This document shows positions 1 through 39,992 of a DNA stretch of 39,992 nucleotides, one piece after another (the first letter of the stretch is position 1; every line of letters begins with the position of its first letter). The stretch is from a virus. The translations under genes and the position numbers were made by a program. The DNA lies in the UHGV virus genome UHGV-0186582; one strand, 5' to 3'. The notes under the pieces were generated by a model. The model worked only from the letters and a program-made list of their open reading frames with translations. It had not been told where the DNA came from and searched no databases.

Positions 1-2
1 AG

Positions 3-119
3 CTGACGCAGCCAGAAAACACCCGACTTAACGCTGTGCTGGATTATATTGACGCGGTGACGGCAACAGATACCAGCACCGCACCGGATGTCATCTGGCC
101 TGAACTGCCGGAGGCGTAG
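3..119 (+). CDS. Partial CDS, C-terminal 38 codons of a second tail fibre assembly protein (Tfa'), convergent with tfa
   Basis: Frame 3 reads ...NAVLDYIDAVTATDTSTAPDVIWPELPEA then TAG at 117-119; this mirrors the C-terminus of the minus-strand Tfa (NAWLDYLDALELVDTSSAPDIEWPTPP); 5' end outside window. Confidence 0.5.
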   Translation: MTQPENTRLNAVLDYIDAVTATDTSTAPDVIWPELPEA

Positions 120-534
120 GCCATTCAATATCTGGAGCACTGGAGGTATCAACCAGTTCCAGGGCGTCCAGATAATCCAGCCACGCATTAAACTCCGATT
201 TTTCAGCATCATTAAGGCGTCCAAGTGCCAGCTTTGATGGCCACTGTTTGCCATCAATATAGCCGTTAGCTGCGCTAATACGGGACTGTTTCTCCCTCTC
301 GGCGTTGGTTAATTCTTCCTCCTTCGTTGGCGGTGGCAGTTTTTCCCATGCCGGTAGGCCGTCGCTCCCAGCAACTCGCCGCAACCATTCGGAATTACGG
401 TCCTGTGTGAACTCAAAAAACAAATCATCGGAGACATCAACAATGTCCGATAAATCCCATCCAGCCTTTTCATACAATGGCAGTTCAGGCTTAAAGAAAA
501 ACGCATTGTTTTTGGCGCTATACACATAAGACAT
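91..534 (-). CDS. tfa: Tail fibre assembly protein (Tfa family)
   Basis: 147-aa ORF directly downstream of the tail fibre gene; Tfa-like C-terminal motif. Confidence 0.7.
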   Translation of the reverse strand: MSYVYSAKNNAFFFKPELPLYEKAGWDLSDIVDVSDDLFFEFTQDRNSEWLRRVAGSDGLPAWEKLPPPTKEEELTNAEREKQSRISAANGYIDGKQWPSKLALGRLNDAEKSEFNAWLDYLDALELVDTSSAPDIEWPTPPAVQAR

Positions 535-536
535 GA

Positions 537-1343
537 TTAGTTACCTATCGCAATGTAAAAAACTCTTTCGCTTGCATTGTTTCCGGAATCACCAGAATTG
601 CCAGACCATGCAATATCCATGAAAGTAAAACCGTTTTTGTTGACGCTGTTTTCTCGAAACATTGGCCCAAAAAGCCAGTAGTTTTGAACGTAAGTTTGAC
701 CAAATACGATACCGAAACACTGATTTGGAAACGGTGTAGAAAATACTTTGTCGCCGGTCATAGTTACATAACCGTAACGGAAGTGTATTCCGTTAGGCAT
801 TCCAACGCCGCCTGATGGCAGGCTCCAGGCGCTCATGTCTGGAATTTGGCCCGCCCCAGTGCCCACATCCCTTTTCGCCGCTTCTCCTAAACCAAGGTAT
901 GTGAGAATGTCGGCAATAGTGCTTTTACCGATAATGTCTCGGCCAACAGAAGTTAAATCAGTCTGCGCTGCTTTATCAGTTCCAGTGAAATACGGGAGTT
1001 TATTTGCACCTGTTGCGAGCCCAGCTAATGCCGACAGCGTGGCATCAAGTGCCTGGAAATCCTTCCCAAAAGCGGTTCCCATTTTGGAGATAAAGCCGTT
1101 CAGGTCACCATCATCAAGCACGTCCAGCCCACTTTTGTTGGCTGTGTACTGCGCAAGCGCTGCCGCGATAAAGCTGGCTTGCCGAATAGCTTTGTTGACC
1201 TGTGCGCTGGATGCTTTACCTGCCGTAAACCCTGAAAGCAGAGCCGGAAGTGCTTCCCAGTCAGCTTGTGAGGTGACGTTAGCGTTCGGATCAAGCGCGA
1301 AAGGTTTAAAGTTGTTTATTGCCATTAGAGTATTGTCCCCCAT
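537..1343 (-). CDS. Side tail fibre protein (P2 gpH-like distal part)
   Basis: 268 aa; MAINNFKPFALDPNANV N-terminus and LSALAGLATGANKLPYFTGTD...VGRDIIGKSTIADILTYLGL motif as recalled from P2 H / Stf fibres. Confidence 0.7.
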   Translation of the reverse strand: MGDNTLMAINNFKPFALDPNANVTSQADWEALPALLSGFTAGKASSAQVNKAIRQASFIAAALAQYTANKSGLDVLDDGDLNGFISKMGTAFGKDFQALDATLSALAGLATGANKLPYFTGTDKAAQTDLTSVGRDIIGKSTIADILTYLGLGEAAKRDVGTGAGQIPDMSAWSLPSGGVGMPNGIHFRYGYVTMTGDKVFSTPFPNQCFGIVFGQTYVQNYWLFGPMFRENSVNKNGFTFMDIAWSGNSGDSGNNASERVFYIAIGN

Positions 1344-2005
1344 GCTCCAACATCGAACCCGCCGATGTATTCGTTATCCATATCAAACCCAAAGAATTTA
1401 GAGCCCTCGGATGGTGCTTCTACCGAAGGCGTTTCAACATCACCGGCCCATACGCCAGCTGCTTTAACGGTGAGATAGCCCTGTTTGATAGCGGCAATCA
1501 GTTCAAGAGACACATCAGAAATATCAGTCTCGGGGAATACCCAAACCGATATCGTCATGTCCTGGTTGTCGACGATCTGCATTCGCAGCCCGGAGCCTGC
1601 TGTTGCCGCGTCAAGAATTGCCGGAAGCGAATCATTCCGTCCGTCCCAGTTATTAATCGCAATCTTCGCTTTAAGAATGACACGATAAGTTTTATCGCTG
1701 AGATACATGTATCCTGAATCAGGATCGTATGGTCCCTGCCATACCCCCTGATCATATCCAAGCCCGTCGGTATCCCAGCTGAAATAGACACCTGATATAG
1801 GCTGGCTGACAACACGGCTACGCCCGATCCACAATCCCAGAATGTCAAGTTGCACACCAACCGCAGAGTCAATATCAAATGCAGTAATCAGCCCTCTGGT
1901 GGCAGCCGCAACATCAATAAGCGGCCGGGTCATCAGATCAACATGTGCAAGAAATTTAGGTTTGGTGACGTGGTAGTTCGTGATTAGTTCGGTGTATTTG
2001 CTCAT
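1325..2005 (-). CDS. Tail/baseplate protein (Mu gp48 / YmfQ-like)
   Basis: 226-aa ORF between baseplate J-like gene and tail fibre; assignment by position and family recall. Confidence 0.5.
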   Translation of the reverse strand: MSKYTELITNYHVTKPKFLAHVDLMTRPLIDVAAATRGLITAFDIDSAVGVQLDILGLWIGRSRVVSQPISGVYFSWDTDGLGYDQGVWQGPYDPDSGYMYLSDKTYRVILKAKIAINNWDGRNDSLPAILDAATAGSGLRMQIVDNQDMTISVWVFPETDISDVSLELIAAIKQGYLTVKAAGVWAGDVETPSVEAPSEGSKFFGFDMDNEYIGGFDVGAWGTIL

Positions 2006-3201
2006 GACTCCACCGTTATAACGATATTTTCCGGGGTACAGGACGCAGATTCGTTGTATCTGATATCAATGTTTGATGACGACAAAGCCCCCGGGGATTT
2101 CCCAATCGTCAGTTCCTGAATATCGTAATAGCGTGCATTCCCGCCACTCACCACGCCAAGATTCGCCGGTGAGTAAATGCGACTTAAAAGGACCGAATCA
2201 CCAATCGTCAGACTATTGATATAGTCGGAAATAGCCTGCTGGATCTGCTGCCCTATCTGTGAGGTATAACCCGTAAAAACTTTTAATTTAATCCGGGCAT
2301 AAACAGGCACATCACTGGAACGCGAGAATTTGATTACATGGGGATTGCCGTATTTATCCGGAACCGTAACGGATGTTGTACCGTGAGTGGCTGTCCCCTG
2401 GCCTTTATTCCCTCTGATAGCCTGAGCAATATCCGTCACATCACCGCCATCCACAATTACAGCAACAGAGTGTGGCGGTAACCCGTTGCCGTCCTCCGAA
2501 CCAGTATCGTTTTCATAGAGTTTGTGGCGGGTTACACCGGTAATATTAGAAACAGCACCATCCAGTGCTTCAAATGGGGTTATTGATGGCAACGCAACAC
2601 TTTGCGACTGGCGGATACGTAACTCCGAATCAGTTTCTGCCGGAGTGCCCACAGTGGCTGCAGCAGGATTGGTTACCGAAACCCAGCCACGGGTTGGCGT
2701 ATTAATTTCAGTGATAGTTCCAGCCAGCGCCGCCACTGCGCCACTGACGGAACATGTTGCGGTCACCATCACTGTACCATCCACTCCGACCACCACTGAA
2801 GCAGGCAAACGCCATATCACATTATTACTGTCTTTCACGCTGCCATTAATGATGGTTGTTCCGGTAGTTCCTGTAAGAAGCAAATCAACCGTAGAGTTCG
2901 TCGCGCCTTTACGTGAAATACCATTTATTTTCACGTTACTGGTCAGTGCAGCCCCATAGCCGGTTGCCGGTGAAAAACAGTTGTAGACAGTTATCGCCGT
3001 ATTATTGGCATCATGAATCGCCAGCGCCATCAGAGCCACCATCTGGCCGTCTTTGCTGTCCGGTTCGAGGTAGGCATCACTGCCATAAATCTGCTGAAAA
3101 TAGCTAATCAGGGTGCTGAGTATCGTCTGATAATCAGGCGCACTGATCCCCTCCGCGGTTACCTTTGCAGATAAACCGAGAGAATCAAGGTTCAGAGCCA
3201 T
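2002..3201 (-). CDS. Baseplate J-like protein (Mu gp47-like)
   Basis: 399-aa ORF, overlapping starts/stops with neighbours; position in Mu-like baseplate order. Confidence 0.6.
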   Translation of the reverse strand: MALNLDSLGLSAKVTAEGISAPDYQTILSTLISYFQQIYGSDAYLEPDSKDGQMVALMALAIHDANNTAITVYNCFSPATGYGAALTSNVKINGISRKGATNSTVDLLLTGTTGTTIINGSVKDSNNVIWRLPASVVVGVDGTVMVTATCSVSGAVAALAGTITEINTPTRGWVSVTNPAAATVGTPAETDSELRIRQSQSVALPSITPFEALDGAVSNITGVTRHKLYENDTGSEDGNGLPPHSVAVIVDGGDVTDIAQAIRGNKGQGTATHGTTSVTVPDKYGNPHVIKFSRSSDVPVYARIKLKVFTGYTSQIGQQIQQAISDYINSLTIGDSVLLSRIYSPANLGVVSGGNARYYDIQELTIGKSPGALSSSNIDIRYNESASCTPENIVITVES

Positions 3202-3554
3202 TACGCCTCCGATGTAACAGTCGTTATTCCATAAAGAGTGTCGATTTCAGCGGAAAACATGACACGTCGGGTCGTGGTATCCACCGTCGTATTGAAAGAG
3301 AGGATTGATTTAACGCCCCGCGTTTCGAGGATGCGCTTACGGATCGCCAGGTTGTAGGTTTCCGGCTTCTGCTTACCGAGTACGGACTGGATCCACGGAG
3401 TCCCCTCGGTGGTGTCGAGAAACCATTGCCCATACCACAATTCGAATCGCGTTTTTACCGCCTGCGCCACGGCCTCCGGTGAGTTAATCAGCCAGGTGTC
3501 ATCACCGCTGCCAAAGGTATAATCGCCATCGGCGTCTTCACGTCTGTATCGCAT
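3201..3554 (-). CDS. Baseplate wedge protein (gp25/GPW-like, Mu gp46-like)
   Basis: 117 aa; size and position between spike and J-like gene. Confidence 0.5.
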   Translation of the reverse strand: MRYRREDADGDYTFGSGDDTWLINSPEAVAQAVKTRFELWYGQWFLDTTEGTPWIQSVLGKQKPETYNLAIRKRILETRGVKSILSFNTTVDTTTRRVMFSAEIDTLYGITTVTSEA

Positions 3555-4306
3555 CAGTTCACCCCGTCTGTGTTGCTTCCGCCTCGCTGAACCCCGCCGT
3601 GCGTGTGAGTATCATCAATTGACTTGCCGTTAGCTTTAACGGTACCGATAAACTCGACAGCGCCGGTGATTTTGGATGCAACTCCAGAAGCAACAGACCC
3701 CACCATTCCACCCAGCCAGGACAGTAGCCCGTGAATGGTTACTTTCGCCGAGAAGTCGGCCAGCGGGGTAACTACATCCAGACCGCCAGGCGCTACGATT
3801 TTAATTTTCTGCGTATCCGGATTAAGGTCGATGTACGTACTTCCATCAACACTTCGAAGCTGCGCCGACGTGGTGCTGACATTCTTAATTTTGTTGGGCT
3901 GAGATATTTGACCCACTGAGCAGGTGGCGTCGGACAGGTCATGTATGCGGTCGTCGACAGGTTCCTGCACTCCACCGTTTTGCCAGAAGAAATCAATACA
4001 GCGGTCTTGAAACTTAAGTTCGCACTCATCGCCGGGGCTCACCGGCAACGTTAAAGTAACTCCCCCGGCCGTTGGGAATACCACGGGAACATCCACCAGC
4101 AGCGGGTAAGGTTTTGTCACCCGGTTACCATCGTTATCGATCTCAACGTAACGGATAGCAGGCTGCACAACCGCCGTAACCGCGTCAGAATCGAATGACT
4201 GAATAATGCCAGGCAAAGCGACTCGGATCTGGTTCTTTGTTGTTTCCCGTTCAGATTTGAATGTTTCAGCAAGGTCGCCGCTGCGGGTCTGGTCAGATAC
4301 TGCCAT
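3554..4306 (-). CDS. Baseplate spike / assembly protein V-like (Mu gp45-like)
   Basis: 250 aa; ATG at 4304-4306 with GGAG RBS upstream; position in baseplate cluster. Confidence 0.5.
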   Translation of the reverse strand: MAVSDQTRSGDLAETFKSERETTKNQIRVALPGIIQSFDSDAVTAVVQPAIRYVEIDNDGNRVTKPYPLLVDVPVVFPTAGGVTLTLPVSPGDECELKFQDRCIDFFWQNGGVQEPVDDRIHDLSDATCSVGQISQPNKIKNVSTTSAQLRSVDGSTYIDLNPDTQKIKIVAPGGLDVVTPLADFSAKVTIHGLLSWLGGMVGSVASGVASKITGAVEFIGTVKANGKSIDDTHTHGGVQRGGSNTDGVN

Positions 4307-4320
4307 TTAGTAGGCTCCAG

Positions 4321-4348
4321 AAAGCAAAAAACCCGCCGGGTGGCGGGT
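4321..4348 (-). terminator. Rho-independent terminator closing the inserted cassette
   Basis: Minus strand reads AAACCCGCC-ACCC-GGCGGGTTTTTTGC immediately after the TAA stop (4349-4351) of the 138-aa gene. Confidence 0.6.
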
Positions 4349-4765
4349 TTATGAATCGTAGGTTTTCAATTTTTCGAGTTCATCAGGAGGAAGTTCTATG
4401 AAGGTTTCCTCTGCTAATTTTATCAGCCTGGGAAGCATCGAATCAGCTTGCTGATGAGCGTTTGGGCTGATGATTGCCAATATCTGATAGTGTTCATCGA
4501 TATAAAGATGCTGAGCATATACCAAAAAATTATCACATGTCCGTTCACTCAGAGATGCTTCTGGAGGCCAGGGTTTATCGCCAGGTAGCTTTAAGTGAAT
4601 TTTCCTGATGTTGGCAGCCATCGCATCATAGTTACGTTCAAAACCGCCTAACGAACCAAAACACCAGAACTGGGAACCCTTTGAAATATAATCGGCAAGC
4701 ATTTGAGCATACTTATGTGCTGCAGCTAAATGACGCAATTCTCCCGTTATACTGACTTTTGCCAT
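4349..4765 (-). CDS. YafO-like toxin domain protein (putative mRNA interferase-type toxin)
   Basis: 138 aa; motifs LADYISKG, KIHLKLPGDKPWPP, SERTCDNFLVYAQH, YQILAIISPNAH, LIKLAEETF align with recalled E. coli YafO (TADFISYKRDG, HIHLANENNPFPP, SRTNDEAHLVYCQG, WLLIAILKPEPH, KIGKMAEAF); from memory, not an HMM search. G+C about 40 percent, below flanking tail genes. Confidence 0.5.
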   Translation of the reverse strand: MAKVSITGELRHLAAAHKYAQMLADYISKGSQFWCFGSLGGFERNYDAMAANIRKIHLKLPGDKPWPPEASLSERTCDNFLVYAQHLYIDEHYQILAIISPNAHQQADSMLPRLIKLAEETFIELPPDELEKLKTYDS

Positions 4766-4766
4766 G

Positions 4767-5339
4767 TCACATCCATTTAGGGGCGTCGGCTCCCAGCATC
4801 TTATGCGATGTAGAGATCAGTTCAATAGCCTCTTCACGGGTAACATTATCTGACAAGAGTTCAGCCAGGAAAGGCTGCGATTGCCTAACTTCAGCGGCCA
4901 ACTGAGTTGCAGTGTTCTCGACGGCGGTCAACGCACGAACATATTTGCGTTTTAATGGGCGCAACATTTGCAGATGGCCTTGCCACATAGGGGACCTTTC
5001 CGCTTCAGAGAACATATCCACTAAATGTCCTTTAGCATTTCGGCATGCCTTGGCAAGACCTTCGAGATGGGATAAAAACCCGTCCGGAAGCTCATCAACA
5101 ATGATTCTTCCATTTCGAAAAGCTTCGAGATGAGACATGCCTTCCTTCGCGGTATTTTCGATTTCTTGAGCGCGTGCAGCAATCGCGGTACAACGACGAA
5201 ATGCCTCTTCAGCATCTAATCGTTGTGGCAGTTCACAAGCATTAGAGATCAGGGGTTTGAAAGCACCGTTAACAGCTTCCTGAACCTGATTCATTTGTTG
5301 TGTAATTGTTGCCAGCGCAAATGCGTAGCTAATCGCCAT
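4767..5339 (-). CDS. Hypothetical ~190-aa protein, upstream partner of the YafO-like gene (candidate antitoxin/immunity); no recognised family
   Basis: Stop TGA is 1 nt from the downstream ATG (TGA-C-ATG); likely start is the ATG at 5339 with GAGGG RBS (ORF track starts at TTG 5345); no resemblance to YafN/Phd-type antitoxins that I can see. Confidence 0.5.
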   Translation of the reverse strand: MAISYAFALATITQQMNQVQEAVNGAFKPLISNACELPQRLDAEEAFRRCTAIAARAQEIENTAKEGMSHLEAFRNGRIIVDELPDGFLSHLEGLAKACRNAKGHLVDMFSEAERSPMWQGHLQMLRPLKRKYVRALTAVENTATQLAAEVRQSQPFLAELLSDNVTREEAIELISTSHKMLGADAPKWM

Positions 5340-5352
5340 ACCCAATCCCTCT

Positions 5353-5367
5353 GTCGTTTTAAACGAC
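5353..5367. promoter_or_regulatory. Perfect 15-bp palindrome GTCGTTTTAAACGAC in the AT-rich region upstream of the cassette; candidate operator
   Basis: Read directly; lies just upstream of the RBS of the 190-aa gene inside a 162-bp AT-rich intergenic region (5346-5507). Confidence 0.3.
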
Positions 5368-5507
5368 TATACACCACTTATTCAAAGTTAGCTGAGCGCT
5401 AAAAGTTCGCAAAGTTTAGTGATCATGCAACCACCTAGCAAGCGATAAAAAATCATTATTTAGTGAATGTGAACAAACTCAACACTATGCAGAAATGTAA
5501 CTTTTGG

Positions 5508-5861
5508 TTAACCATCAACCTTTTTACACGGGAAAGAACCGATGATTTTCGGCGCGTCCATGCTGTTCTGCAGTAGCTGAACGTTCAGAAAGCGCGTTTC
5601 GGTACCAGGGCGACGAATGTATTCAAAGCCGTAGTTGTTACCGTCTTTGGCAGGCATGAGGCCCATGTCTGCCTTCATACCGTTGCCGCTACCGAGCGTT
5701 TTAATTTTCTGGGAGGTAACAGTCTCACCATTAATCCTGAACAATGAATCAGGAACCAACTCTAATTTATAACCACCACACTGAAGCGTGACGCCGCCAG
5801 GATTCGCGGCAAATGCCGAACCTGAAAGAAAACAGAGTCCGATAACAATCCACTTTTTCAT
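5508..5861 (-). CDS. Small secreted protein with Sec-type signal peptide; unknown function
   Basis: 117 aa; N-terminus MKKWIVIGLCFLSGSAFA-ANPGG; two Cys in mature part; 2-nt gap to upstream baseplate gene. Confidence 0.5.
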   Translation of the reverse strand: MKKWIVIGLCFLSGSAFAANPGGVTLQCGGYKLELVPDSLFRINGETVTSQKIKTLGSGNGMKADMGLMPAKDGNNYGFEYIRRPGTETRFLNVQLLQNSMDAPKIIGSFPCKKVDG

Positions 5862-5863
5862 TC

Positions 5864-6928
5864 TTATCCTTCCCTCTGCAGAGACGAAGTAGAGCGGAGA
5901 TCCGCCGCGCCGCGCGCTTCACACATCATGTCCATGTACCACGCCTGGCCCCTTGTGTCGCCAGTGTACATAATCCCGCGCACAATATAAACGCCATCTG
6001 TTGCGATGCTGGCAGGCTGCGCCGTGGTGCCGCTGAGCGTGATATTTCCGTCCGTGTTCTGGTCGGTGATCTTCCCACCAGCCATCGCGATATCATTGTT
6101 CGACAGCGCGGTGCGGTACACGGAAGCCTGATCCAGCTGAATAAGCCCGTTAACCCGGATGTTCGGATTAATGAGCGCACGGACGTTTACGCCGTTACCG
6201 ATGGTCTGCTGCGGCATGCCAATAAGCCCGGTAGCACTGTTGAGCACAATCGCTTCGTGAACATATTCGTTATTCGCCACCATCTGGCGCTGACCGTCCA
6301 CGAATTGCCATGTTGCGCCACATTGCCCGGCTACGTTATCCATTAGATGCCGCGTCATGCCAAAGAGCACCCGCCCCCGGGGGAATACAGTAGCAGGCAT
6401 TTCAGGCGTCAGGCCTTCGGTCGCGCCTTTGGCTTCGAAGTCTTTCATCAGCGCACGGTTCACATCAGCGACCGTGTAACCGGCAGCCAGCGTCTGTGAG
6501 GTTATACTGGTGGCAAATGCCAGATCCGTATCTGCTGCCTGAATCAGGACATAGGAATCAATAGGGCTGTCTTTTCCTGTGACCGAGTAGCGAATTTCTC
6601 CGCTGAAAATCAGCCCGTAGTTGCGGCCATCACTCTGGCCCACATCTGCCGCGTCGACTTCGCGCACGGTCCCGACGTCGCTTGCCGCCACCTCAGGCGC
6701 GATACCGTCGTAACCGGCAATCAGCCGCACTTTCGAAAACTCCTGCCCGGTAATTCGGTTCACAGTATCTGCCGAAAGGTTATAAATTTTGATAGTCCCT
6801 ACCCGGGACGCGCTGCTGATGTTGAACCAGTCGATCGTAAAGGTGACTTTGAAATCACTTAGCTCAATTCCCTGACCATTCCCGTCCACAAGCTGCAGCT
6901 CGAAATGTCTCATCCAGTTCTGTGACAT
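5864..6928 (-). CDS. Tail/baseplate hub-like protein (Mu gp44-like position)
   Basis: 354-aa ORF in tail cluster; assignment by position. Confidence 0.45.
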   Translation of the reverse strand: MSQNWMRHFELQLVDGNGQGIELSDFKVTFTIDWFNISSASRVGTIKIYNLSADTVNRITGQEFSKVRLIAGYDGIAPEVAASDVGTVREVDAADVGQSDGRNYGLIFSGEIRYSVTGKDSPIDSYVLIQAADTDLAFATSITSQTLAAGYTVADVNRALMKDFEAKGATEGLTPEMPATVFPRGRVLFGMTRHLMDNVAGQCGATWQFVDGQRQMVANNEYVHEAIVLNSATGLIGMPQQTIGNGVNVRALINPNIRVNGLIQLDQASVYRTALSNNDIAMAGGKITDQNTDGNITLSGTTAQPASIATDGVYIVRGIMYTGDTRGQAWYMDMMCEARGAADLRSTSSLQREG

Positions 6929-6930
6929 GC

Positions 6931-7233
6931 TTACTCCGTTGATACCAGTAAATGACTGCGGCCGCCCAGATCAGTTTTCGTGGGATAATCCTGTGTGTTG
7001 TCATCGCAGACCACCACCAGCTTAAAACCAAGTCCCATACAGGCGTACTGCGCCAGCAGATCAGCGCCAGTGACGAGAGGAATACCGGAGATTACCGGCT
7101 CCCCTCTGTCGTTCTGCAGGTCCATAATCCAGTAAAGATCGCGCCATATGATGCTAATCTGCCAAGTGACACCACCCAGGACGATGCTGAACTGCTGGTT
7201 GTCCGCTGTCAGCGGAATTTCCTGAATTATCAT
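6931..7233 (-). CDS. Hypothetical tail protein
   Basis: 100-aa ORF tightly packed between tail genes. Confidence 0.4.
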   Translation of the reverse strand: MIIQEIPLTADNQQFSIVLGGVTWQISIIWRDLYWIMDLQNDRGEPVISGIPLVTGADLLAQYACMGLGFKLVVVCDDNTQDYPTKTDLGGRSHLLVSTE

Positions 7234-31881: not shown

Positions 31882-31886
31882 GGTTA

Positions 31887-32615: not shown

Positions 32616-32816
32616 ATGACTACGACTATTGATACAAATCAATGGTGTGGACAATTCAAGCGATGCAATGGATGCAAGCTGCAATCGGAATACATGGTTA
32701 AGCCTGAAGAAATATTTCCTGTAATGGAAGATGGGAAATATGTCGATAAATGGGCAATACGAACGACGGCAATGATTGCCAGAGAACTTGGTAAACAGAA
32801 TAACAAGGCTGCCTGA
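32616..32816 (+). CDS. Hypothetical small protein (Cys-motif CGQFKRCNGC)
   Basis: 66-aa ORF; its start overlaps a 28-codon acidic mini-ORF (32546-32632) so the true coding unit is uncertain. Confidence 0.35.
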   Translation: MTTTIDTNQWCGQFKRCNGCKLQSEYMVKPEEIFPVMEDGKYVDKWAIRTTAMIARELGKQNNKAA

Positions 32817-32820
32817 TGGT

Positions 32821-32850
32821 GGCCTTTATTTTTGGCATAAACAACAGAGG
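32821..32850. repeat. Repeat B copy 2
   Basis: See copy 1. Confidence 0.85.
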
Positions 32851-32855
32851 ATAAC

Positions 32856-33152
32856 ATGGAATTTAAAGGTACTGAAGGCAAGTGGGAAATAATGATGGAT
32901 GGCGATGAGATTAAAATAATCCAGGCAGACTCACTTGAAAATGGCGCAGGCTGGCGTTCGTATATTGCAATCTGTGAGGAAGTTCAATGTATTGAAGATG
33001 CCAATCTAATAGCGGCAGCACCTGACCTTCTCGAAGCACTTCAGTTATTACTTAAGCAATCCAAAAATAGAACAACGACAACATATCCAGAATGGTATGG
33101 AGCTGTTAATAAAGGTCTTGCAGCAATCAGCAAGGCTCTGGGAGGTGAATGA
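32856..33152 (+). CDS. Hypothetical protein, paralogue of 31621-31881
   Basis: 98 aa; IAAAPDLLEALQLL...AAISKALGGE. Confidence 0.5.
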   Translation: MEFKGTEGKWEIMMDGDEIKIIQADSLENGAGWRSYIAICEEVQCIEDANLIAAAPDLLEALQLLLKQSKNRTTTTYPEWYGAVNKGLAAISKALGGE

Positions 33153-33352
33153 TGTGCGAGTTTTATGAAGCAGATATCAAACGCCCAGAAATGGCAAGTG
33201 ATGCGACATTACGTGATTACTTCGCGGCAAAGGCTATGCAAGCAATGATTAGCAATCCATCGATTATCGATAATGATTCTGATGGAGTTGTTAATTATGC
33301 AGCAAGCGCTGCATATAAGTTTGCAGACGCAATGCTCAAAGCTCGCGAATAA
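33149..33352 (+). CDS. Hypothetical protein
   Basis: 67 aa, ATGA overlap with upstream stop. Confidence 0.45.
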   Translation: MMCEFYEADIKRPEMASDATLRDYFAAKAMQAMISNPSIIDNDSDGVVNYAASAAYKFADAMLKARE

Positions 33353-33451
33353 GCACTGTGTATTCATTCCAACGAGTGAATACACGGAGCAATGTCGCTC
33401 GTAACTAAACAGGAGCCGACTTGTTCTGATTATTGGAAATCTTCTTTGCCC

Positions 33452-33478
33452 TCCGATGTGGGGGGCCTTTTTATATGC
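33452..33478 (+). terminator. Possible terminator-like hairpin
   Basis: CCCTCC-GATGT-GGGGGG followed by CCTTTTTAT. Confidence 0.3.
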
Positions 33479-33538
33479 ATACCAATAACGCTTCACTCGA
33501 GGCGTTTTCGTTATGCAATCAAACAGAAGGAGCATCCT

Positions 33539-33709
33539 ATGCAACAGTTCGCTATTGCAGGGGCGGCATCGGTTCGCCCTTTCAACCCGATTTTATCGGT
33601 ACAGCATTCACGAAAAAACATTTTAACCGGAGCAGACTTTAAACAACCAAGAATGAAAAGTTTGCTCGAAAAGCTTTGGGATATTTTGAAACAACAAGGC
33701 CGTCCATGA
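33539..33709 (+). CDS. CIII-like protein (FtsH inhibitor family)
   Basis: 56 aa; MQQFAIAG... and ...LWDILKQQGRP resemble lambda CIII MQYAIAG...LIDILNQPGVP; AGGAG RBS. Confidence 0.45.
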   Translation: MQQFAIAGAASVRPFNPILSVQHSRKNILTGADFKQPRMKSLLEKLWDILKQQGRP

Positions 33710-33864
33710 GTTTTACAGATAACTGGTCAGACGAAGAATTCATTCGTCAGATGAAAGAATTAATCGGTAACGAAGGAGATATTCATGTCACTTGCAACCA
33801 CAGTGAAGGAGAGCAAGTTACAGAGACGCATGTACACGCAGAAAGCTCTCTGGTATCGCCATAA
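33706..33864 (+). CDS. Hypothetical small protein (kil position)
   Basis: 52 aa from ATG overlapping cIII-like stop. Confidence 0.3.
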   Translation: MSFTDNWSDEEFIRQMKELIGNEGDIHVTCNHSEGEQVTETHVHAESSLVSP

Positions 33865-33965
33865 TGGCGACCGCGAAGGAATGCGGGTATGCCTTAATTT
33901 GTCCCGAGTCGAAGTATTAAATCAGCGTTATTTCCTTGGGTCATGTCCATTCTGAGAACAATCAT

Positions 33966-34571
33966 ATGAGCAAAGAATTTTACGCAAGACTGGCAGTTAT
34001 TCAGGAAAATCTGAACGCGCCCAAGAATCAGTACAACTCATTCGGTAAATATAAATACAGAAGCTGCGAAGACATTCTTGAAGGCGTTAAGCCGTTACTG
34101 AATGGTCTGTTTTTATCAATCAGCGATGAAGTTGTGTTGATTGGTGATCGGTATTACGTGAAAGCCACGGCAACTATTACCGATGGCGAAAACAGTCATA
34201 CGGCAACCGCTCTTGCACGAGAGGAAGAAAGCAAGAAAGGAATGGATTCTGCACAAGTTACTGGAGCTACAAGCTCTTATGCACGCAAGTATTGCCTCAA
34301 TGGTTTGTTCGGCATTGATGATGCGAAAGATGCAGATACAGACGAGCATAAACATCAGCAGAACGCAGCAGCAAAGCAATCAAAACCATCACCTACATCT
34401 GAACAGGTTCTAAAAGCATTCACTGACGCAGCAATGCAGAAAAACACCGTAGAAGAGCTTAAACAGGCGTTCGCCAAAGCGTGGAAGATGCTCGAAGGCA
34501 CACCGGAGCAGCACAAAGCGCAGGACGTTTACAACATCAGACGAGATGAATTAGAAGGAGCGGCTGCTTAA
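33966..34571 (+). CDS. erf: Erf single-strand annealing recombinase (P22 Erf-like)
   Basis: MSKEFYARLAVIQENLNAPKNQYNSFGKYKYRSCEDILEGVKPLL... matches recalled P22 Erf; start taken at ATG 33966. Confidence 0.8.
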   Translation: MSKEFYARLAVIQENLNAPKNQYNSFGKYKYRSCEDILEGVKPLLNGLFLSISDEVVLIGDRYYVKATATITDGENSHTATALAREEESKKGMDSAQVTGATSSYARKYCLNGLFGIDDAKDADTDEHKHQQNAAAKQSKPSPTSEQVLKAFTDAAMQKNTVEELKQAFAKAWKMLEGTPEQHKAQDVYNIRRDELEGAAA

Positions 34572-34951
34572 TGGCACATTCGATTACTGTAAGACTAAAC
34601 AAGCCCGTAAGAGAGTTTCAGGCCGGGGAAAATATCGGATTCAACATCCGTGCTGGCGTTCAGTATTACGATCGCCAGACAAAAAAGAAAGAATGGACAA
34701 ACTACAGCGCCGTTGTATTTGCCAAGCCGGGAGCGCAAGCGGATTACTACCGTAGTGTTCTTGTTGAAGGTGGAATTGTGGAAATTACCGGAGAAAACAT
34801 CAGGGTTGATGTTTATCAGGGGCAAAATGGTCAATCAATCACTCTTGAATTACTGAATGCAAAGATTGGATTTGCAGCTTCAGGAAATGGCCAGCAGCAA
34901 AGTAGCAATCATCAAAATCATCCTGAATACGACGATTCAATTCCCTTCTAG
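34571..34951 (+). CDS. Single-stranded DNA-binding protein (SSB-like)
   Basis: 126 aa ending YDDSIPF, like the E. coli SSB acidic tip DDDIPF. Confidence 0.6.
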   Translation: MAHSITVRLNKPVREFQAGENIGFNIRAGVQYYDRQTKKKEWTNYSAVVFAKPGAQADYYRSVLVEGGIVEITGENIRVDVYQGQNGQSITLELLNAKIGFAASGNGQQQSSNHQNHPEYDDSIPF

Positions 34952-34974
34952 ATTAGCAAAATAAGGCTCCCATT

Positions 34975-35271
34975 ATGCCAGCGCCTCTGTATGGTGCGGA
35001 TGACCCGCGCAACTGCTCCGGTAGCTCCAAGGCGGAGGTGCTGGAAAATATCAAAAACAATTTCGACACGTTTATCGATCTGCCACCAGAAACAAAAGCA
35101 GAACGGATGTACCGACGCGATATACAACTCGCGTTAAAAGATGAGAAGGACCGAACAAACGAAACAGCAATGAGACCGTTGCGAAAAGCGACAATAGACA
35201 AATTCCCTGAATATATCGACCCGCGCCTGCGTAATTACCGCTCACGCTATGGCGCTATCAGTAATGACTGA
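34975..35271 (+). CDS. Hypothetical protein; possible Abc2-like anti-RecBCD (size/position only)
   Basis: 98 aa directly downstream of erf/ssb. Confidence 0.35.
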
Positions 35272-35281
35272 GGAATTTACC

Positions 35282-35446
35282 ATGAGAGGACTTGCATACA
35301 ATCCCGGCATTCTTCCGGCAGAAATGATTATTCGCCAACGCGTAAAGCCAATGCCATCGAGAGAGGAATTGCTTAAGAGAAAGAGTTTCGGTTCTGTTAA
35401 TGACAACAAATATCTGAATGCGATGTGGCGGAGTGGGAAGAAATGA
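35282..35446 (+). CDS. Hypothetical small protein
   Basis: 54 aa from ATG 35282 with GAGGAA RBS. Confidence 0.35.
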
Positions 35447-35880
35447 AACAAATATCACTAATTGAGATGGATGGTTTTCTGAAAGGTAAATGCATCCCAC
35501 GAGATTTAAAGGTTAACGAAACAAATGCTGAATATCTGGTGCGTAAATTTGCTGAAGCTGAGGCCAAGTGCGCGGCACTGGCGGTGGAGAATGCGGGAAT
35601 AAAGTCTGCAATTCCTCAACTACGGGATATTGATGCTGACAATGACAATATGGATGACGTATCTCTTGCTGAAGACTTCGGATTCAATCATGCAATAGAA
35701 CGGATGAGGAGACAGATACCTGAAACCCCAGCCACCGATGCTTTTCTGGCTGAAGTACGGGCGCAGGGCGTGGAGATGGCTATGGAGCATATGCAGTCGA
35801 GCGGTTCGTTAACATTTGGAGATTGCTACATATCACTTAACGAGTTCGCCGCCCAGCTTCGTAAAGGAGGCAACCAGTGA
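35443..35880 (+). CDS. Hypothetical protein
   Basis: ATG 35443 overlaps upstream stop (ATGA). Confidence 0.45.
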
Positions 35881-36422
35881 GTGTAACGGTTGAAAAGATT
35901 GATGTGTTGTCATTCGTTATAACCGGTGCAGAGCGACTAGATCCGGTTCGAGTGATGATTGAAAACTACGAACCTGGTAAGGGAAGAATCACCATCACCT
36001 GCTACGGAAAAGCGTGGACTGCGGCTTGGTTTGCTATGGGCGGTGATGATGTGCAGACGTTCATTAAGCGGGTCAGCAACGAGTATCTAATCGGCTATTT
36101 CGACCCTCAACTGCGAAGCACGGTCGACGATGACAACGATGCAAATCTGCTTTTCGTGAAGTCAGAAATCATAAAGTTACGAAGAGAGAGAGAAATCGAC
36201 GCGGTACAGGCTCGCGAAATGTGGGACGAGGCGGAAAACGCCGATGACGTAAAAGAAAGCTGCTGTTGTTTCGGTGTCGGTAACAAACTGCTGAATCTCT
36301 TTGGTGATGATCCGTGGTATGCAGACTGGCCAACGGCACCAAACCCGAAATACCAGTATCTGGAACGCGTACTTAATGCAGTGAGAGACGGTCTTAAGCA
36401 AATAGAGAAGGTGGAACTATGA
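35877..36422 (+). CDS. Hypothetical protein
   Basis: 181 aa, GTG start overlapping upstream stop. Confidence 0.45.
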   Translation: MSVTVEKIDVLSFVITGAERLDPVRVMIENYEPGKGRITITCYGKAWTAAWFAMGGDDVQTFIKRVSNEYLIGYFDPQLRSTVDDDNDANLLFVKSEIIKLRREREIDAVQAREMWDEAENADDVKESCCCFGVGNKLLNLFGDDPWYADWPTAPNPKYQYLERVLNAVRDGLKQIEKVEL

Positions 36423-36718
36423 CTGTATGTCTTATTGATAAACGTCGACGTGGGCAACAAATACCATCTGTTGAAATGCCGAATCACACATGGTTTTGCG
36501 TACTTGATATCGATGGTATGGATACGTTGGTTGACACTCGTCATTACTGCGATACCGCAACAGCTACTCCGGCGAAAGCAAAGAAAATGGCTGCTCTGAT
36601 AGAAAACTGGACTCCACCTGATGGTTGGTGCAATGGGAATGATCGGGATTGGCACGAAAAAATGAAGGGCTATATCTGCGATTTTTTACGTAAATGCAAC
36701 GGATTCAGGGTGATGTGA
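36419..36718 (+). CDS. Hypothetical Cys-rich protein
   Basis: 99 aa, ATGA overlap. Confidence 0.4.
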   Translation: MTVCLIDKRRRGQQIPSVEMPNHTWFCVLDIDGMDTLVDTRHYCDTATATPAKAKKMAALIENWTPPDGWCNGNDRDWHEKMKGYICDFLRKCNGFRVM

Positions 36719-36719
36719 C

Positions 36720-37319
36720 ATGAGCAAGATTGACTATCAGGCACTGCGTGAGGCGGCGCAGAACGCGAAAGATTTAGGTGGGATTAAGAATTACAAGCGA
36801 GGCGAGCAAGCTGTTGCCGAATTTGAGTCCTTGATAACGCCACACATTGTGCTGGCGCTTCTGGATGAACGGGAAAGGAACCAGCAATACATCAAATCAC
36901 GCGACCAGGAGAACGAGGATATTGCGCTTACGGTTGGGAGGCTGCGCGTTAAGCTGGAAGGCAAAGACAGCAAAATAGCCAATCTTACCGCCGAACGCGA
37001 TGCTCTTCGTGAAGGTGAGATGGGCGACGCTAGGCATAGCAACACACGGGCCGCAGCTGATATCTACTTCCAACTGGTCGAGGAGTGCGAAATTCCTGCT
37101 GGCGGATCTCTGGTCGAGTACGTTGACGATATGCGCGAGAAGCTGGAAGCCGCAGAGAAGCGAATCGCTGAACTGGAAGCGAAGCTCGATAGCGCAGATA
37201 AATTGCAAGATAGCGCATTTCGTCATGGTCTTCAGCATGGCTTCAGTTTAGGTCAAACGGATAATCAGGCTGGATTTGAAGAGTGCTTATCTGCCTATGG
37301 CACCGGTAAAGGAGAGTGA
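36720..37319 (+). CDS. Ead/Ea22-like coiled-coil protein
   Basis: 199 aa with heptad-like central region; family recalled from lambdoid ea regions. Confidence 0.45.
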   Translation: MSKIDYQALREAAQNAKDLGGIKNYKRGEQAVAEFESLITPHIVLALLDERERNQQYIKSRDQENEDIALTVGRLRVKLEGKDSKIANLTAERDALREGEMGDARHSNTRAAADIYFQLVEECEIPAGGSLVEYVDDMREKLEAAEKRIAELEAKLDSADKLQDSAFRHGLQHGFSLGQTDNQAGFEECLSAYGTGKGE

Positions 37320-37594
37320 ATGTGAAAAATTATCTCAGCAATTTAGCCAGCATGCTTCAGGGGATTGCAGGTGTCATTTCAGACGGCGAGCGGGTGCAGA
37401 AAGAGTGCCCTGCGCACTTAAAGTCAGCACTACTCGAGGCTTCTCACGCGCTAGATGGTCAATCGGTCAGGGTCAATTATCCGCCTAATGGAAAGCCTGA
37501 AATTGTTAATGCCCGCGGACACCATCGACCGCTTACCTTCCGGGAACGAGTGGCAATCCGCTTACTTGGTGGCAGGACGGAGATTCGCCCATGA
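37316..37594 (+). CDS. Hypothetical protein
   Basis: 92 aa, GTG start with AGGAG RBS. Confidence 0.4.
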   Translation: MNVKNYLSNLASMLQGIAGVISDGERVQKECPAHLKSALLEASHALDGQSVRVNYPPNGKPEIVNARGHHRPLTFRERVAIRLLGGRTEIRP

Positions 37595-38418
37595 GCACTA
37601 TTACCAGAGAACTGGCAAAGCTGTTCAGAAAAATTACGAATTCTGAAATTGATGCGGAGGGTAACGCTCATGTTGTTTTATCTCCTGCTGATAGCCTCCT
37701 GATTAATAATGCGCGTATCGCGCTGGCATCGCTCGAAGCGGAGCCTGTGGCGTGGGCGCACAGATTAATCAACAAGCGTAACGGAGTCGTTCACCCTTGG
37801 GTTTACGGTAGCGCAGAGGCGTGTCCAAGCGAGGGGGATATCTTCAATATTGAGGTAATGCCGCTTTACACCGCCCCGCCAGCGCCGGTATCTGTGCCCG
37901 CTGCGATGGAAATTGATGATGACTTTGACAGCGCGTTTGAACACGGAAAAGCTGTCGGCTGGAACGCCTATCGCGCCGCCATGCTTCAGGCCGAACCTGC
38001 AAGTAATCATGAAGAGTTGCCGCTTGATTATCTCCAAGGTCAAAAAGATGGTCTTGAATGGGCTGCGCAGCTTGCAGAAGCAAATCACCCACAAACTGGC
38101 GACTGGCTTTACGATGACCCGCTGGAGCTGGCTAAAGCTATCAGAAAAGGTCCTGACATGCCCGAATTCGATGGACCAACTCCGGTAACTCCGGATGGTT
38201 GGATAAGCTGTAGTGAGCGAATGCCAGAAATGGGCCAGAACGTGCTTATTTCGGTGAATTTCGATAGCTCTCTGGTTGAACCGCTAATATGCTCCGCACG
38301 CTATACCGGAAGCACATTTCGGCGCGGAGATGCAACGATTAAGCCGGGTAATGGTATTGAGCAAGCAACTCACTGGATGCCGCTACCGGAACCGCCGCAG
38401 GAGGTAAACCGTGGCTAA
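37591..38418 (+). CDS. DUF551-domain protein
   Basis: C-terminal ...ATHWMPLPEPP motif typical of DUF551. Confidence 0.5.
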   Translation: MSTITRELAKLFRKITNSEIDAEGNAHVVLSPADSLLINNARIALASLEAEPVAWAHRLINKRNGVVHPWVYGSAEACPSEGDIFNIEVMPLYTAPPAPVSVPAAMEIDDDFDSAFEHGKAVGWNAYRAAMLQAEPASNHEELPLDYLQGQKDGLEWAAQLAEANHPQTGDWLYDDPLELAKAIRKGPDMPEFDGPTPVTPDGWISCSERMPEMGQNVLISVNFDSSLVEPLICSARYTGSTFRRGDATIKPGNGIEQATHWMPLPEPPQEVNRG

Positions 38419-38518
38419 CCTGCAACTTGCCGTTAAAGGTGAATAACAATCCTCGCATTCGCGGGGATTTCTTTTATCTGAACTCGCTACGGCGGGTTTT
38501 GTTTTATGGAGATGATAA

Positions 38519-38686
38519 ATGCACTTTCGAGTCACAGGTGAATGGAATGGAGAACCATTCAACAGGGTTATCGAAGCAGAGGACTTCAACGACTGCTATG
38601 ACCACTGGATGATATGGGCGCAGATAGCGCATGCAGACGTAACCAATATTCGAATTGAAGAACTGAAAGAACACAAAACCGCCTGA
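38519..38686 (+). CDS. Hypothetical small protein (55 aa)
   Basis: ATG with GGAG RBS; below ORF-track cutoff. Confidence 0.3.
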   Translation: MHFRVTGEWNGEPFNRVIEAEDFNDCYDHWMIWAQIAHADVTNIRIEELKEHKTA

Positions 38687-38698
38687 TGGCGGTTTTTT
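38675..38698. terminator. Symmetric (potentially bidirectional) rho-independent terminator before xis
   Basis: AAAACCGCC-TGAT-GGCGGTTTTTT. Confidence 0.5.
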
Positions 38699-38725
38699 CT
38701 TGCGTGTAATTGCGGAGACTTTGCG

Positions 38726-38944
38726 ATGTACTTGACACTTCAGGAGTGGAACGCACGCCAGCGGCGCCCAAGAAGCCTTGAAACAGTGCGTCGATGGGTA
38801 CGCGAATGCAGGATATTCCCTCCTCCGGTTAAGGATGGAAGAGAGTATCTGTTCCACGAATCAGCGGTAAAGGTTGACTTAAATCGACCAGTAACAGGTA
38901 GCCTTTTGAAGAGGATCAGAAATGGGAAGAAGGCGAAGTCATGA
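38726..38944 (+). CDS. xis: Excisionase Xis (lambda type)
   Basis: 72 aa MYLTLQEWNARQRRPRSLETVRRWVRECRIFPPPVKDGREYLFHESAVKVDL... matches recalled lambda Xis. Confidence 0.9.
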   Translation: MYLTLQEWNARQRRPRSLETVRRWVRECRIFPPPVKDGREYLFHESAVKVDLNRPVTGSLLKRIRNGKKAKS

Positions 38945-39992
38945 GCGCCGGGATTTACCCCCTAACCTTTATATAAGAAACAATGGATATTACTGCTACA
39001 GGGACCCAAGGACGGGTAAAGAGTTCGGATTAGGCAGAGACAGGAGGATAGCAATTACTGAAGCAATACAGGCAAACATTGAGTTATTTTCAGGACACAA
39101 ACACAAGCCTCTGACAGCGAGAATCAACAGTGATAATTCCGTTACGTTACATTCATGGCTTGATCGCTACGAAAAAATCCTCGCCAGCAGAGGAATCAAG
39201 CAGAAGACACTCATAAATTACATGAGCAAAATTAAAGCAATAAGGAGGGGGCTGCCTGATGCTCCACTTGAAGACATCACCACAAAAGAAATTGCGGCAA
39301 TGCTCAATGGATACATAGACGAGGGCAAGGCGGCATCAGCCAAGTTAATCAGATCAACACTGAGCGATGCATTCCGAGAGGCAATAGCTGAAGGCCATAT
39401 AACAACAAACCCTGTCGCTGCCACTCGCGCAGCAAAATCAGAGGTAAGGAGATCAAGACTTACGGCTGACGAATACCTGAAAATTTATCAAGCAGCAGAA
39501 TCATCACCATGTTGGCTCAGACTTGCAATGGAACTGGCTGTTGTTACCGGGCAACGAGTTGGTGATTTATGCGAAATGAAGTGGTCTGATATCGTAGATG
39601 GATATCTTTATGTCGAGCAAAGCAAAACAGGCGTAAAAATTGCCATCCCTACAACATTGCATGTTGATGCTCTCGGGATATCAATGAAGGAAACACTTGA
39701 TAAATGCAAAGAGATTCTTGGCGGAGAAACCATAATTGCATCTACTCGTCGTGAACCGCTTTCATCCGGCACAGTATCAAGGTATTTTATGCGCGCACGA
39801 AAAGCATCAGGTCTTTCCTTCGAAGGGGATCCGCCTACCTTTCACGAGTTGCGCAGTTTGTCTGCAAGACTCTATGAGAAGCAGATAAGCGATAAGTTTG
39901 CTCAACATCTTCTCGGGCATAAGTCGGACACCATGGCATCACAGTATCGTGATGACAGAGGCAGGGAGTGGGACAAAATTGAAATCAAATAA
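38922..39992 (+). CDS. int: Tyrosine integrase Int (lambda type)
   Basis: 356 aa, near-identical to recalled lambda Int, C-terminal catalytic region with HELRSL...HLLGH...Y. Confidence 0.95.
   Translation: MGRRRSHERRDLPPNLYIRNNGYYCYRDPRTGKEFGLGRDRRIAITEAIQANIELFSGHKHKPLTARINSDNSVTLHSWLDRYEKILASRGIKQKTLINYMSKIKAIRRGLPDAPLEDITTKEIAAMLNGYIDEGKAASAKLIRSTLSDAFREAIAEGHITTNPVAATRAAKSEVRRSRLTADEYLKIYQAAESSPCWLRLAMELAVVTGQRVGDLCEMKWSDIVDGYLYVEQSKTGVKIAIPTTLHVDALGISMKETLDKCKEILGGETIIASTRREPLSSGTVSRYFMRARKASGLSFEGDPPTFHELRSLSARLYEKQISDKFAQHLLGHKSDTMASQYRDDRGREWDKIEIK

Follow-up and report, generated by a model that had tools for sequence, protein, structure and literature searches.

UHGV-0186582 as a highly probable lambdoid prophage patchwork with a predicted contractile tail

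Introduction

Pervasive mosaicism has been described for lambdoid phages from the modular theory and the genome papers of HK97/HK022 and HK620 onwards (references in PMC5261728; compare also PMC9836094). The Salmonella phage SEN34 (genus Brunovirus) has a lambda-like genome and, by electron microscopy, a Myoviridae morphology (PMC5261728). The stretch of DNA analyzed here, referred to as the window, comprises the 39,992 nucleotides of the virus genome UHGV-0186582. It was found to be, with high probability, a nearly complete temperate lambdoid prophage from the gene pool of Escherichia coli and Shigella phages, composed as a patchwork of blocks from known phages. Each block is 92-99% identical to a different known lambdoid phage, and the transitions to non-homology are sharp. 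The mosaicism is real but ordinary, and the prophage combines known modules in a new way.

Gene order and block structure

Gene assignments were based on a map of open reading frames (ORFs), tblastn searches against lambda, P22, and Mu, and scans of Pfam and PHROG. These identified a single and complete lambdoid gene set in the correct order and in the reverse orientation of the lambda map, including int-xis, the early left region, immunity, the early right and replication region, the nin region, Q, lysis, and the virion genes. The minus strand encodes, from 91 to 30030, genes for tail-fibre assembly, fibre, baseplate, tape measure, chaperone, tube, sheath, neck, head, portal, TerL, TerS, Rha, Rz/R/S, and Q, followed by the nin genes, replication, c1, and cro. 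The plus strand continues from 30111 with c2, N, ral, cIII, erf, abc2, ea-type genes, xis, and int. Nothing was found in the window by an Rfam scan at gathering thresholds or by a tRNA scan.

A sequence-only reading of this DNA had described a mosaic of lambda int/xis, nin, and lysis genes, P22 immunity and recombination genes, and a Mu-like tail, and had proposed a whole-window BLAST against lambda and P22. When run, this comparison returned sharp blocks of high identity rather than uniform moderate identity to a single reference. The identity along the window was bimodal for each reference, and the block structure supports modular exchange.

Lambda aligned by blastn over 10.8% of the window (8.7% at 95% identity or higher), with blocks at 22489-23767 (96.0%; S, R, and the 5' part of Rz), 25850-26187 (95.6%; ninE-ninF), 32521-32848 (96.3%; ral), and 38443-39992 (97.7%; orf55, xis, and int). 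By tblastn, protein identities to lambda were 99.2% for Int, 98.6% for Xis, 99.1% for S, 98.7% for R, 95.5% for Ral, 92.7% for NinF, and 90.3% for NinE. The near-identity to lambda claimed for Int, Xis, S, R, NinE, and NinF was thus borne out (90.3-99.2%), with NinE slightly nearer to P22 (92.4%). The window also shares with lambda the overall gene order and the tR2 island, but it differs in type from lambda in immunity, N, replication loader, Q, and every virion gene, and its predicted tail is contractile.

P22 aligned over 11.2% of the window, 9.4% at 70-90% identity, with DNA blocks at 29416-30943 (c1-cro-c2-OL; 81.9%) and in erf (78.9%). Protein identities to P22 were 91.7% for C2, 95.1% for Cro, 85.9% for C1, 74.6% for Erf, and 62% for Abc2. 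Hence C2, Cro, and the operators are indeed P22-type, while Erf belongs to the P22 family yet is clearly diverged, as is Abc2. The two genomes have in common the immC-type repressor, Cro, operators, a C1 homologue, and the Erf and Abc2 families. They differ in the immunity region (~82% DNA identity), N (36%), and the boxB loops, and the replication, Q, int, and virion genes all differ. A tblastn comparison with P22 revealed no homologue of the immI genes (mnt, arc, ant) in the window, where only a Rha-family gene is present. As that reading had stated, the replication, Q, and structural genes are of other types, neither lambda nor P22, according to tblastn, Pfam, and a PDB match for Q. No DNA alignment to Mu was found anywhere in the window by blastn.

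Closest relatives of the blocks

The window was compared with eleven reference phages, and one prophage, that of E. coli PSS-04, was compared separately. The eleven references jointly aligned over 90% of the window, 79% of it at 90% identity or higher. E. coli phage N7 shares 98.9% identity with the window over 27379-31266 (replication, c1, cro, c2, nutL, and the 5' part of N), and CUS-3 shares 99.1% over 29733-31060. Phage Dewey is 99.0% identical over 24530-28637, from ninH up to and including the helicase loader, and erf/abc2 is 92-94% identical to CUS-3, Sf101, and PDP110P2. For int-xis, JEP4, PDP110P2, and lambda are equally near (about 97.7-97.9%), and lambda is the single best match among the eleven references for the lysis block only. 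On these alignments, the nearest relative of most blocks in the window is a phage other than lambda or P22.

The P22-like podoviruses CUS-3, N7, JEP4, and Sf101, together with Dewey, match the window at 98-99% identity in their immunity, nut, N, replication, and nin blocks, and also share the boxB pair, the erf/abc2 module, and, in CUS-3, a Q of the Q21 type. In contrast, CUS-3, N7, JEP4, and Sf101 are Lederbergvirus members with short-tailed virion genes of the P22 type, and CUS-3 and N7 also carry immI (mnt/arc/ant). The virion module is unlike that of the window in these four and in Dewey, as is the integrase except in JEP4.

The nearest overall relative found was the PSS-04 prophage (NZ_AP027666.1, ~3.513-3.553 Mb), to which 69.5% of the window aligned. 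This prophage, which has similar counterparts among RefSeq E. coli prophages, shares the virion module (93.6-97.8%), a moron with a YafO-family gene (99.5%; see below), and terS. The P22-type c2/cro/nut/N block (99.3%) and erf/abc2 are also found in the PSS-04 prophage. However, it has a different integrase adjoining a tRNA-Thr gene and proA, a DnaB-type helicase in place of the DnaC-like loader, its own Q of 207 amino acids, several tRNA genes located upstream of S, and one additional HNH gene preceding terS.

Immunity, antitermination, and replication

The immunity and replication region included the following features:

27443-29423, minus strand: replication module including a Ren-like/MarR-like protein (Pfam; 98.9% to N7)
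27730-28593, minus strand: DnaC/IstB-like helicase loader (Pfam IstB_IS21)
28578-29423, minus strand: O-like initiator (Pfam Phage_rep_O; N-terminus 58% identical to lambda O)
28975-29069, inside the O-like gene: four iterons at ~24 bp spacing with the core TGTCTCTAACTTCGAGACA (repeat search)
29458-29736, minus strand: c1/cII-like gene (C1 85.9% to P22)
29837-29827 and 29811-29796, minus strand: boxA and boxB of nutR (motif comparison)
29845-30030, minus strand: cro (58 of 61 residues identical to P22)
30045-30110: OR1-3 block (63 of 66 nucleotides match the block annotated OR1-3 in the P22 record)
30111-30761, plus strand: c2 repressor (92% to P22)
30798-30879, plus strand: OL/pL (71 of 82 nucleotides match P22)
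30927-30937 and 30951-30966, plus strand: boxA and boxB of nutL (motif comparison)
31075-31347, plus strand: N antiterminator (N_peptide PF25694; 36% identical to P22 gp24)

The C2 and Cro genes flank the OR block, and pR- and pL-like promoters were predicted by a promoter scan. Residues 17-52 of C2, the N-terminal helix-turn-helix stretch, are identical to P22, and the recognition region of Cro is unchanged. Judged by these matches and by the alignments above, the immunity is of the P22 immC type, in the CUS-3/N7 lineage.

Both nut sites consist of the boxA GCTCTTTAACA followed by an identical 16-nucleotide boxB hairpin, CCCGCCGAAATGCGGG. The same boxB pair was found in N7, CUS-3, JEP4, and the PSS-04 prophage, and it differs from both P22 boxB loops. 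Its CCGC/GCGG stem is common with P22 nutR, while its loop is GAAAT versus GACAAC. The idea of a wholly foreign nutR boxB was softened on account of this common stem. The iterons within the O-like gene are the presumed origin, and their core presumably differs from the lambda iteron sequence.

Lysis, Q, and nin regions

The region between terS and the replication genes included the following features:

21406-21924, minus strand: Rha-family regulator (Pfam Phage_pRha and ORF11CD3; 45% amino acid identity to P22 Rha)
22270-22737, minus strand: chimeric Rz (residues 1-83 match lambda at 82 of 83, then diverge)
22734-23210, minus strand: R (98.7% to lambda R)
23194-23517, minus strand: S (99.1% to lambda S)
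~24000-23962, minus strand: tR' hairpin and U-run (fold -22.9 kcal/mol, z -3.1)
24038-24009, minus strand: predicted pR'-like promoter, near-consensus, overlapping the end of Q (promoter scan)
24016-24534, minus strand: Q antiterminator of the phage-21 type (PDB Q21 6JNX, 6P18, E 1.7e-90)
24531-27357, minus strand: nin region with NinH, RusA, two HNH-type genes, NinF, NinE, Dam methylase, NinB-like, and DUF7301 (Pfam, tblastn)
27379-27461, minus strand: tR2-like intrinsic terminator island of 68-83 bp, hairpin at 27417-27394 (terminator scan and fold)

The joint in Rz lies at ~22489-22508, near codon ~84, which corresponds to the start of Rz1 by position mapping to lambda. Because the joint falls at this start, the C-terminus of Rz and Rz1 seem to have been exchanged together. 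Q is nearly identical to Q21 over its first 102 residues and more diverged over the C-terminal 60. With N and the nut sites, Q and pR' complete a set of antitermination components that are all present, as predicted from sequence and family matches. The position of Rha between the lysis genes and terS is the leader region typical of P22-like phages, and 21102-21348 is 98% identical to Sf101 and CUS-3.

The two HNH-type genes (25075-25852, minus strand) are located between ninF and rusA; one matched HNH_3 and NUMOD4, and the other showed weak sub-threshold similarity to DUF968/YbcO-like families. Dewey carries the same two genes at 99% identity, and the pair is probably homing-endonuclease cargo.

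The tR2 island is a short conserved segment, with identities of 92.8% to lambda (40553-40634), 92.6% to P22 (34673-34740), 100% to JEP4, 97% to Sf101, and 98.6% to PSS-04. Both of its flanks are non-homologous in the comparisons with these five.

Recombination joints

Joints were defined in the region 20.5-40 kb as the pooled ends of BLAST alignments to the eleven references with at least 88% identity and at least 100 bp. The resulting 53 breakpoint clusters have a median distance of 25 bp to the nearest ORF boundary, compared to ~90 bp for random positions, and 55% of them are located within 30 bp of an ORF boundary versus 20% expected. Neither the observed median nor the 55% fraction was reached in any of 5000 randomizations. 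The joints depend on the reference: compared to CUS-3, the window is collinear from Rz to rusA, and Q and S are not separated by a joint. What is directly observed is the division into blocks, the identities, and where the joints lie.

The sequence-only reading had placed the junctions at intergenic control elements, namely a tR2-like terminator, the pR' region, and the nut sites. This holds for nutL, where the P22 homology stops between boxA and boxB, and for the tR2 island. It does not hold for the lambda-like lysis block, whose start precedes S by ~250 bp and follows tR' by ~200 bp rather than coinciding with pR', and most of the other joints are at plain ORF boundaries. Several joints are intragenic, occurring in Rz (22508), terS (20744), N (31266), Ea22 (36849-37159), and a DUF551 protein (37990/38228); N diverges from N7 past about codon 64.

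The patchwork would have arisen through repeated recombination among co-resident lambdoid phages and prophages. The surviving joints would be concentrated at the edges of genes or domains and in a small number of short conserved islands (tR2, boxA), and would leave partners unseparated, namely the repressor and its operators, N and the two boxB sites, Q and pR', and the C-terminus of Rz and Rz1. A stricter mechanism, in which homologous recombination occurs specifically at conserved intergenic control elements (tR2, nut, pR') that serve as dedicated boundaries, appears unlikely. The 68-83 bp of the tR2 island, at 92-100% identity in lambda, P22, JEP4, Sf101, and PSS-04 between unrelated flanks, would fit such a mechanism, as would the end of P22 homology inside nutL and the "boundary sequences" that the CUS-3 record annotates at comparable positions, namely after cI, after Q, and before S. 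However, the majority of the 53 breakpoint clusters are at ordinary ORF boundaries with no recognizable control element, and neither the intragenic joints nor the start of the lysis block agree with it. The conserved islands may serve as homologous crossover points, but the data fit random joints filtered by selection equally well.

Virion module and contractile tail

The virion module (~900-21100) is 90-95% identical in DNA to the E. coli myoviruses vB_EcoM-611R5, 606R2, 683R1, and 689R2. The alignment to 611R5 is collinear over 1092-20744 at 90-95% (94.7% over 8761-20744), and SEN34 is collinear over 891-20594 at 76-84%. The PSS-04 prophage aligns at 93.6% over 8761-21103, and the baseplate region is 96-98% identical to it and 90-92% identical to 611R5. 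The following features were identified:

1325-7820, minus strand: baseplate genes, including DUF2612, Baseplate_J, wedge, and spike (N-terminal domain and Apex motif), as well as the hub (E217_GP41-like), plug (Pam3_gp18), and a Dit-like protein (Pfam, PHROG)
7820-9829, minus strand: tape measure (Pfam PhageMin_Tail)
9986-10438, minus strand: tail assembly chaperone (Pfam Phage_TAC_15)
10442-10882, minus strand: tube (Pfam KPP10_Orf10; PDB Pam3 8HDR)
10893-12038, minus strand: sheath (Pfam DUF3383; PDB XM1 7KH1, E 9.5e-41, and Pam3 8HDR)
12042-12608, minus strand: tail terminator (Pfam Phage_tail_terminator_9)
Within 12580-21110, minus strand: neck and head genes, including a cement protein, a DUF2213 protein, and a minor head protein with a Mu-F domain (Pfam, PHROG)
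14142-15083, minus strand: major capsid protein (Pfam/PHROG; PDB Pam3 capsid 8HDT)
17465-18931, minus strand: portal (Pfam/PHROG; Phage_portal_3)
18931-20553, minus strand: TerL (Pfam/PHROG)
20556-21110, minus strand: TerS of the Terminase_2 type (Pfam/PHROG)

The family set of the SEN34/XM1/Pam3/E217 type is present in full: DUF3383, KPP10_Orf10, Pam3_gp18, E217_GP41-like, and, among further virion families in Pfam, XM1_gp53/cement and DUF2213. Sequence matches in the PDB included XM1 (7KH1), Pam3 (8HDR/8HDT/7YFZ), and E217 (8ENV). The tail is predicted from its genes to be contractile and of the SEN34 (Brunovirus) / XM1 / Pam3 / E217 type. A contractile tail had also been described in the sequence-only reading, and the sheath and tube families with the PDB matches to XM1 and Pam3 agree with it.

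The label of a Mu-like tail, by contrast, was rejected. In tblastn against Mu, no tail protein of the window gave a match except a generic tail-fibre assembly protein, which matches lambda too, and among nine Mu tail proteins scanned with Pfam, Baseplate_J was the sole family in common with the window. The Baseplate_J family is widespread among contractile-tailed phages. Mu L hits PF04984/PF17482 and Mu M hits PF10618, as opposed to DUF3383 and KPP10_Orf10 in the window, and the Mu sheath and tube families (Phage_sheath_1, Tail_tube PF10618) were not found in the window by a Pfam scan. The same was true in Pfam and PHROG for the families of the Mu baseplate set: DNA_circ_N (N), GpP hub, Gp45 spike, GP46, and Gp48. 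No chain named Mu was returned by the PDB sequence search with the sheath, tube, capsid, and wedge, though Mu virion structures have been published. The likeness to Mu extends to a contractile tail in the broad sense, the Baseplate_J wedge protein, the Mu-F domain of a minor head protein, and a fibre cassette that is probably invertible and has a gix-like site, whereas the sheath, tube, chaperone, hub, spike, and wedge families differ, there are no transposition genes, and the protein similarity in head and tail is limited to a weak TerL hit. The Mu-reminiscent features (the Mu-F domain, the tail-fibre assembly protein that also matches lambda, and the probable invertible cassette) are generic.

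Accordingly, a literal hybrid of three donors, namely lambda for int/xis, nin, and lysis, P22 for immunity and recombination, and a Mu-like phage for the tail, is very improbable. It would account for the lambda-identical Int, Xis, S, and R, the P22-like C2, Cro, and operators, the Mu-F domain and the Baseplate_J protein, and the tail-fibre assembly protein, which is 38% identical to Mu U', along with the gix-like site. However, Mu does not align with the window at the DNA level and matches none of its tail or head proteins beyond the weak TerL hit, its sheath, tube, gp41, N, P, gp45, gp46, and gp48 belong to Pfam families absent from the window, and the PDB matches include XM1, Pam3, and E217. 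Moreover, the immunity block is 82% identical to P22 versus 99% to CUS-3/N7, and the nin block 95.6% to lambda versus 99% to Dewey.

SEN34 couples its virion module to a lambda-like early region, but carries exo/bet/gam, a replication module of the lambda-P type, and another integrase and immunity, while the early region of 611R5 is non-lambdoid, with a DNA polymerase and a helicase. Both have other genes in the moron slot and a TerS with an N-terminal part unlike that of the window; compared to 611R5, the difference covers the N-terminal 120 residues. Separately, the first 53 residues of TerS share 43% identity with an unannotated frame in P22 (40750-41006, upstream of orf80), with 76% identity in the adjoining DNA. 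This P22 segment may hold the fossil of a different terS 5' end.

A further match to the structural module was observed in the record OZ035745.1 ("Wanchaivirus PDP110P2"), where 2400-18900 aligns at ~64-75% with the myovirus-type structural genes of the window. HK106 and mEp234, named species of the genus of PDP110P2, are siphoviruses. The genus label of PDP110P2 may follow its early region only.

Integrity of the arrangement and predicted life cycle

An assembly artefact, in the form of a contig chimeric from several prophages of one genome or from two adjacent prophages, is extremely improbable: the exact full-length arrangement was seen in no phage record or complete E. coli genome, but most joints relative to any one reference are spanned by continuous homology in an independent genome, with PSS-04 covering 8761-21103 (tape-measure gene to the start of terS), JEP4 21363-24533 (rha, lysis, and Q), Dewey 24530-28637 (nin and replication), and N7 27379-31266 (replication, immunity, and N), and the lambdoid gene set is single and correctly ordered, with no function duplicated.

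Several points nevertheless weigh against the reading of the window as a nearly complete lambdoid prophage composed of blocks from known phages. About 10% of the window is unmatched among the eleven references; this share is made up of portions of the tail fibre, of the region of small ORFs at 31412-32501, and of 35557-37158. The complete arrangement was absent from all phage records and complete E. coli genomes searched, so that the exact combination is known from one assembly; the best single coverage was at most 42% of the early half in phage records and, in complete E. coli genomes, at most 57% of 15001-39992 in one place. The ends of BLAST alignments place the joints only within ~10-20 bp. 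Finally, the inducibility, morphology, immunity, and attachment site of the prophage are read from homology only.

With a lambdoid prophage as the preferred reading, its life cycle can be outlined from the gene content. Integration would depend on Int and Xis of the lambda type, and the lysogenic switch on C2 and Cro of the P22 immC type acting on OR and OL. N would act in early transcription at two nut sites with the same boxA and boxB, and replication would use the O-type initiator with its own iterons and the DnaC-like loader. The late genes would be controlled by a phage-21-type Q at a compact pR'/tR', and lysis would be carried out by a lambda-type holin and endolysin with a chimeric spanin. 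The predicted virion is a contractile-tailed particle of the SEN34 (Brunovirus) / XM1 / Pam3 type.

Early left and integration genes

The early left region is itself a patchwork, in which 31406-38612 contains 92-99% matches to Sf101, PDP110P2, CUS-3, Dewey, and JEP4. Together with the integration module, it included the following features:

Within 31406-38612, plus strand: small ORFs and Ead/Ea22, DUF7739, and DUF551 proteins (tblastn, Pfam/PHROG)
32616-32816, plus strand: ral (95.5% to lambda Ral)
3' part of 33392-33709, plus strand: cIII
33936-34571, plus strand: erf (74.6% to P22 Erf)
34571-34951, plus strand: SSB-like protein
34975-35271, plus strand: abc2 (62% to P22 Abc2)
38726-38944, plus strand: xis (98.6% to lambda Xis)
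38922-39992, plus strand: int (99.2% to lambda Int)

The stop codon of int ends at the last base of the window, and attP/attL is therefore located outside it. Within the early left region, a stretch of ~650 bp (31878-32464, plus strand) encodes two small ORFs of 92 and 74 amino acids and had no listed phage match at the megablast level. The 74-amino-acid ORF had no Pfam or PHROG family.

Moron in the baseplate operon

The baseplate operon is interrupted by a two-gene moron of lower GC content:

4329-5482, minus strand: two-gene moron between baseplate genes, with its own promoter-like site and terminator
4349-4765, minus strand: YafO-family toxin (PF13957, E 4e-17)
4767-5345, minus strand: ORF of 192 amino acids directly upstream of the YafO-family gene (PHROG 35514 as the sole hit)
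5482-5455 and 4350-4329, minus strand: promoter-like site and strong terminator of the moron (sequence scan)

The 192-amino-acid protein had no Pfam, NCBIfam, or PADLOC match. PADLOC found nothing in the moron and the unannotated early genes, and NCBIfam returned a sub-threshold YafO hit only. At the DNA level, the moron had no match in 50,697 phage records except for 50 bp of the adjoining spike gene, and it is carried in the same context by 37 complete E. coli genomes. The gene gp21 of SEN34, in the same slot and of the same length as the YafO-like gene, was examined and found to be unrelated to it. The moron may be a non-canonical toxin-antitoxin, anti-phage, or addiction module spread by the prophage lineage, with the 192-amino-acid partner as a new kind of antitoxin, although this interpretation is speculative and decidedly doubtful.

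Tail-fibre end

The left end of the window contains the following features:

1-119, plus strand: second tail-fibre assembly gene, truncated at the window edge to its 3' end (frame-3 translation ending in DVIWPELPEA and a stop)
91-534, minus strand: tail-fibre assembly protein (Pfam Caudo_TAP)
537-1343, minus strand: tail fibre (Pfam Gp53-like_C)
883-908, in the fibre gene: candidate Hin/Gin-type crossover site TTCTCCTAAACCAAGGTATGTGAGAA of 26 bp, gix/pix-like, resembling Mu gix and two sites in 611R5

The two tail-fibre assembly genes converge at the edge (1-119, plus strand, and 91-534, minus strand), and 3-235 aligns to 611R5 in the orientation opposite to the remaining tail genes. Phage 611R5 has a DNA invertase downstream. 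A search of 611R5 for TTCTCCTAAACCAAGGTATGTGAGAA with up to 3 mismatches found nothing, and a relaxed motif search found two related sites that flank its invertible region. Because of the convergent assembly genes, the gix-like site, and the flipped orientation relative to 611R5, the tail-fibre end is probably an invertible host-range cassette, of which the second site and the invertase would be located beyond position 1.

Significance

The mosaic itself adds nothing beyond the textbook modular evolution of lambdoid phages, and the value of the analysis is mainly one of correct annotation: the predicted virion is of the SEN34/Brunovirus myovirus type, the immunity belongs to the CUS-3/N7 lineage of P22-type immC, and Q is of the phage-21 type. 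Beyond this, the prophage provides a compact example of co-travelling partners, namely N and its two boxB sites, Q and pR'/tR', and Rz1 and the C-terminus of Rz, in a genome where the joints are mostly at ORF boundaries.

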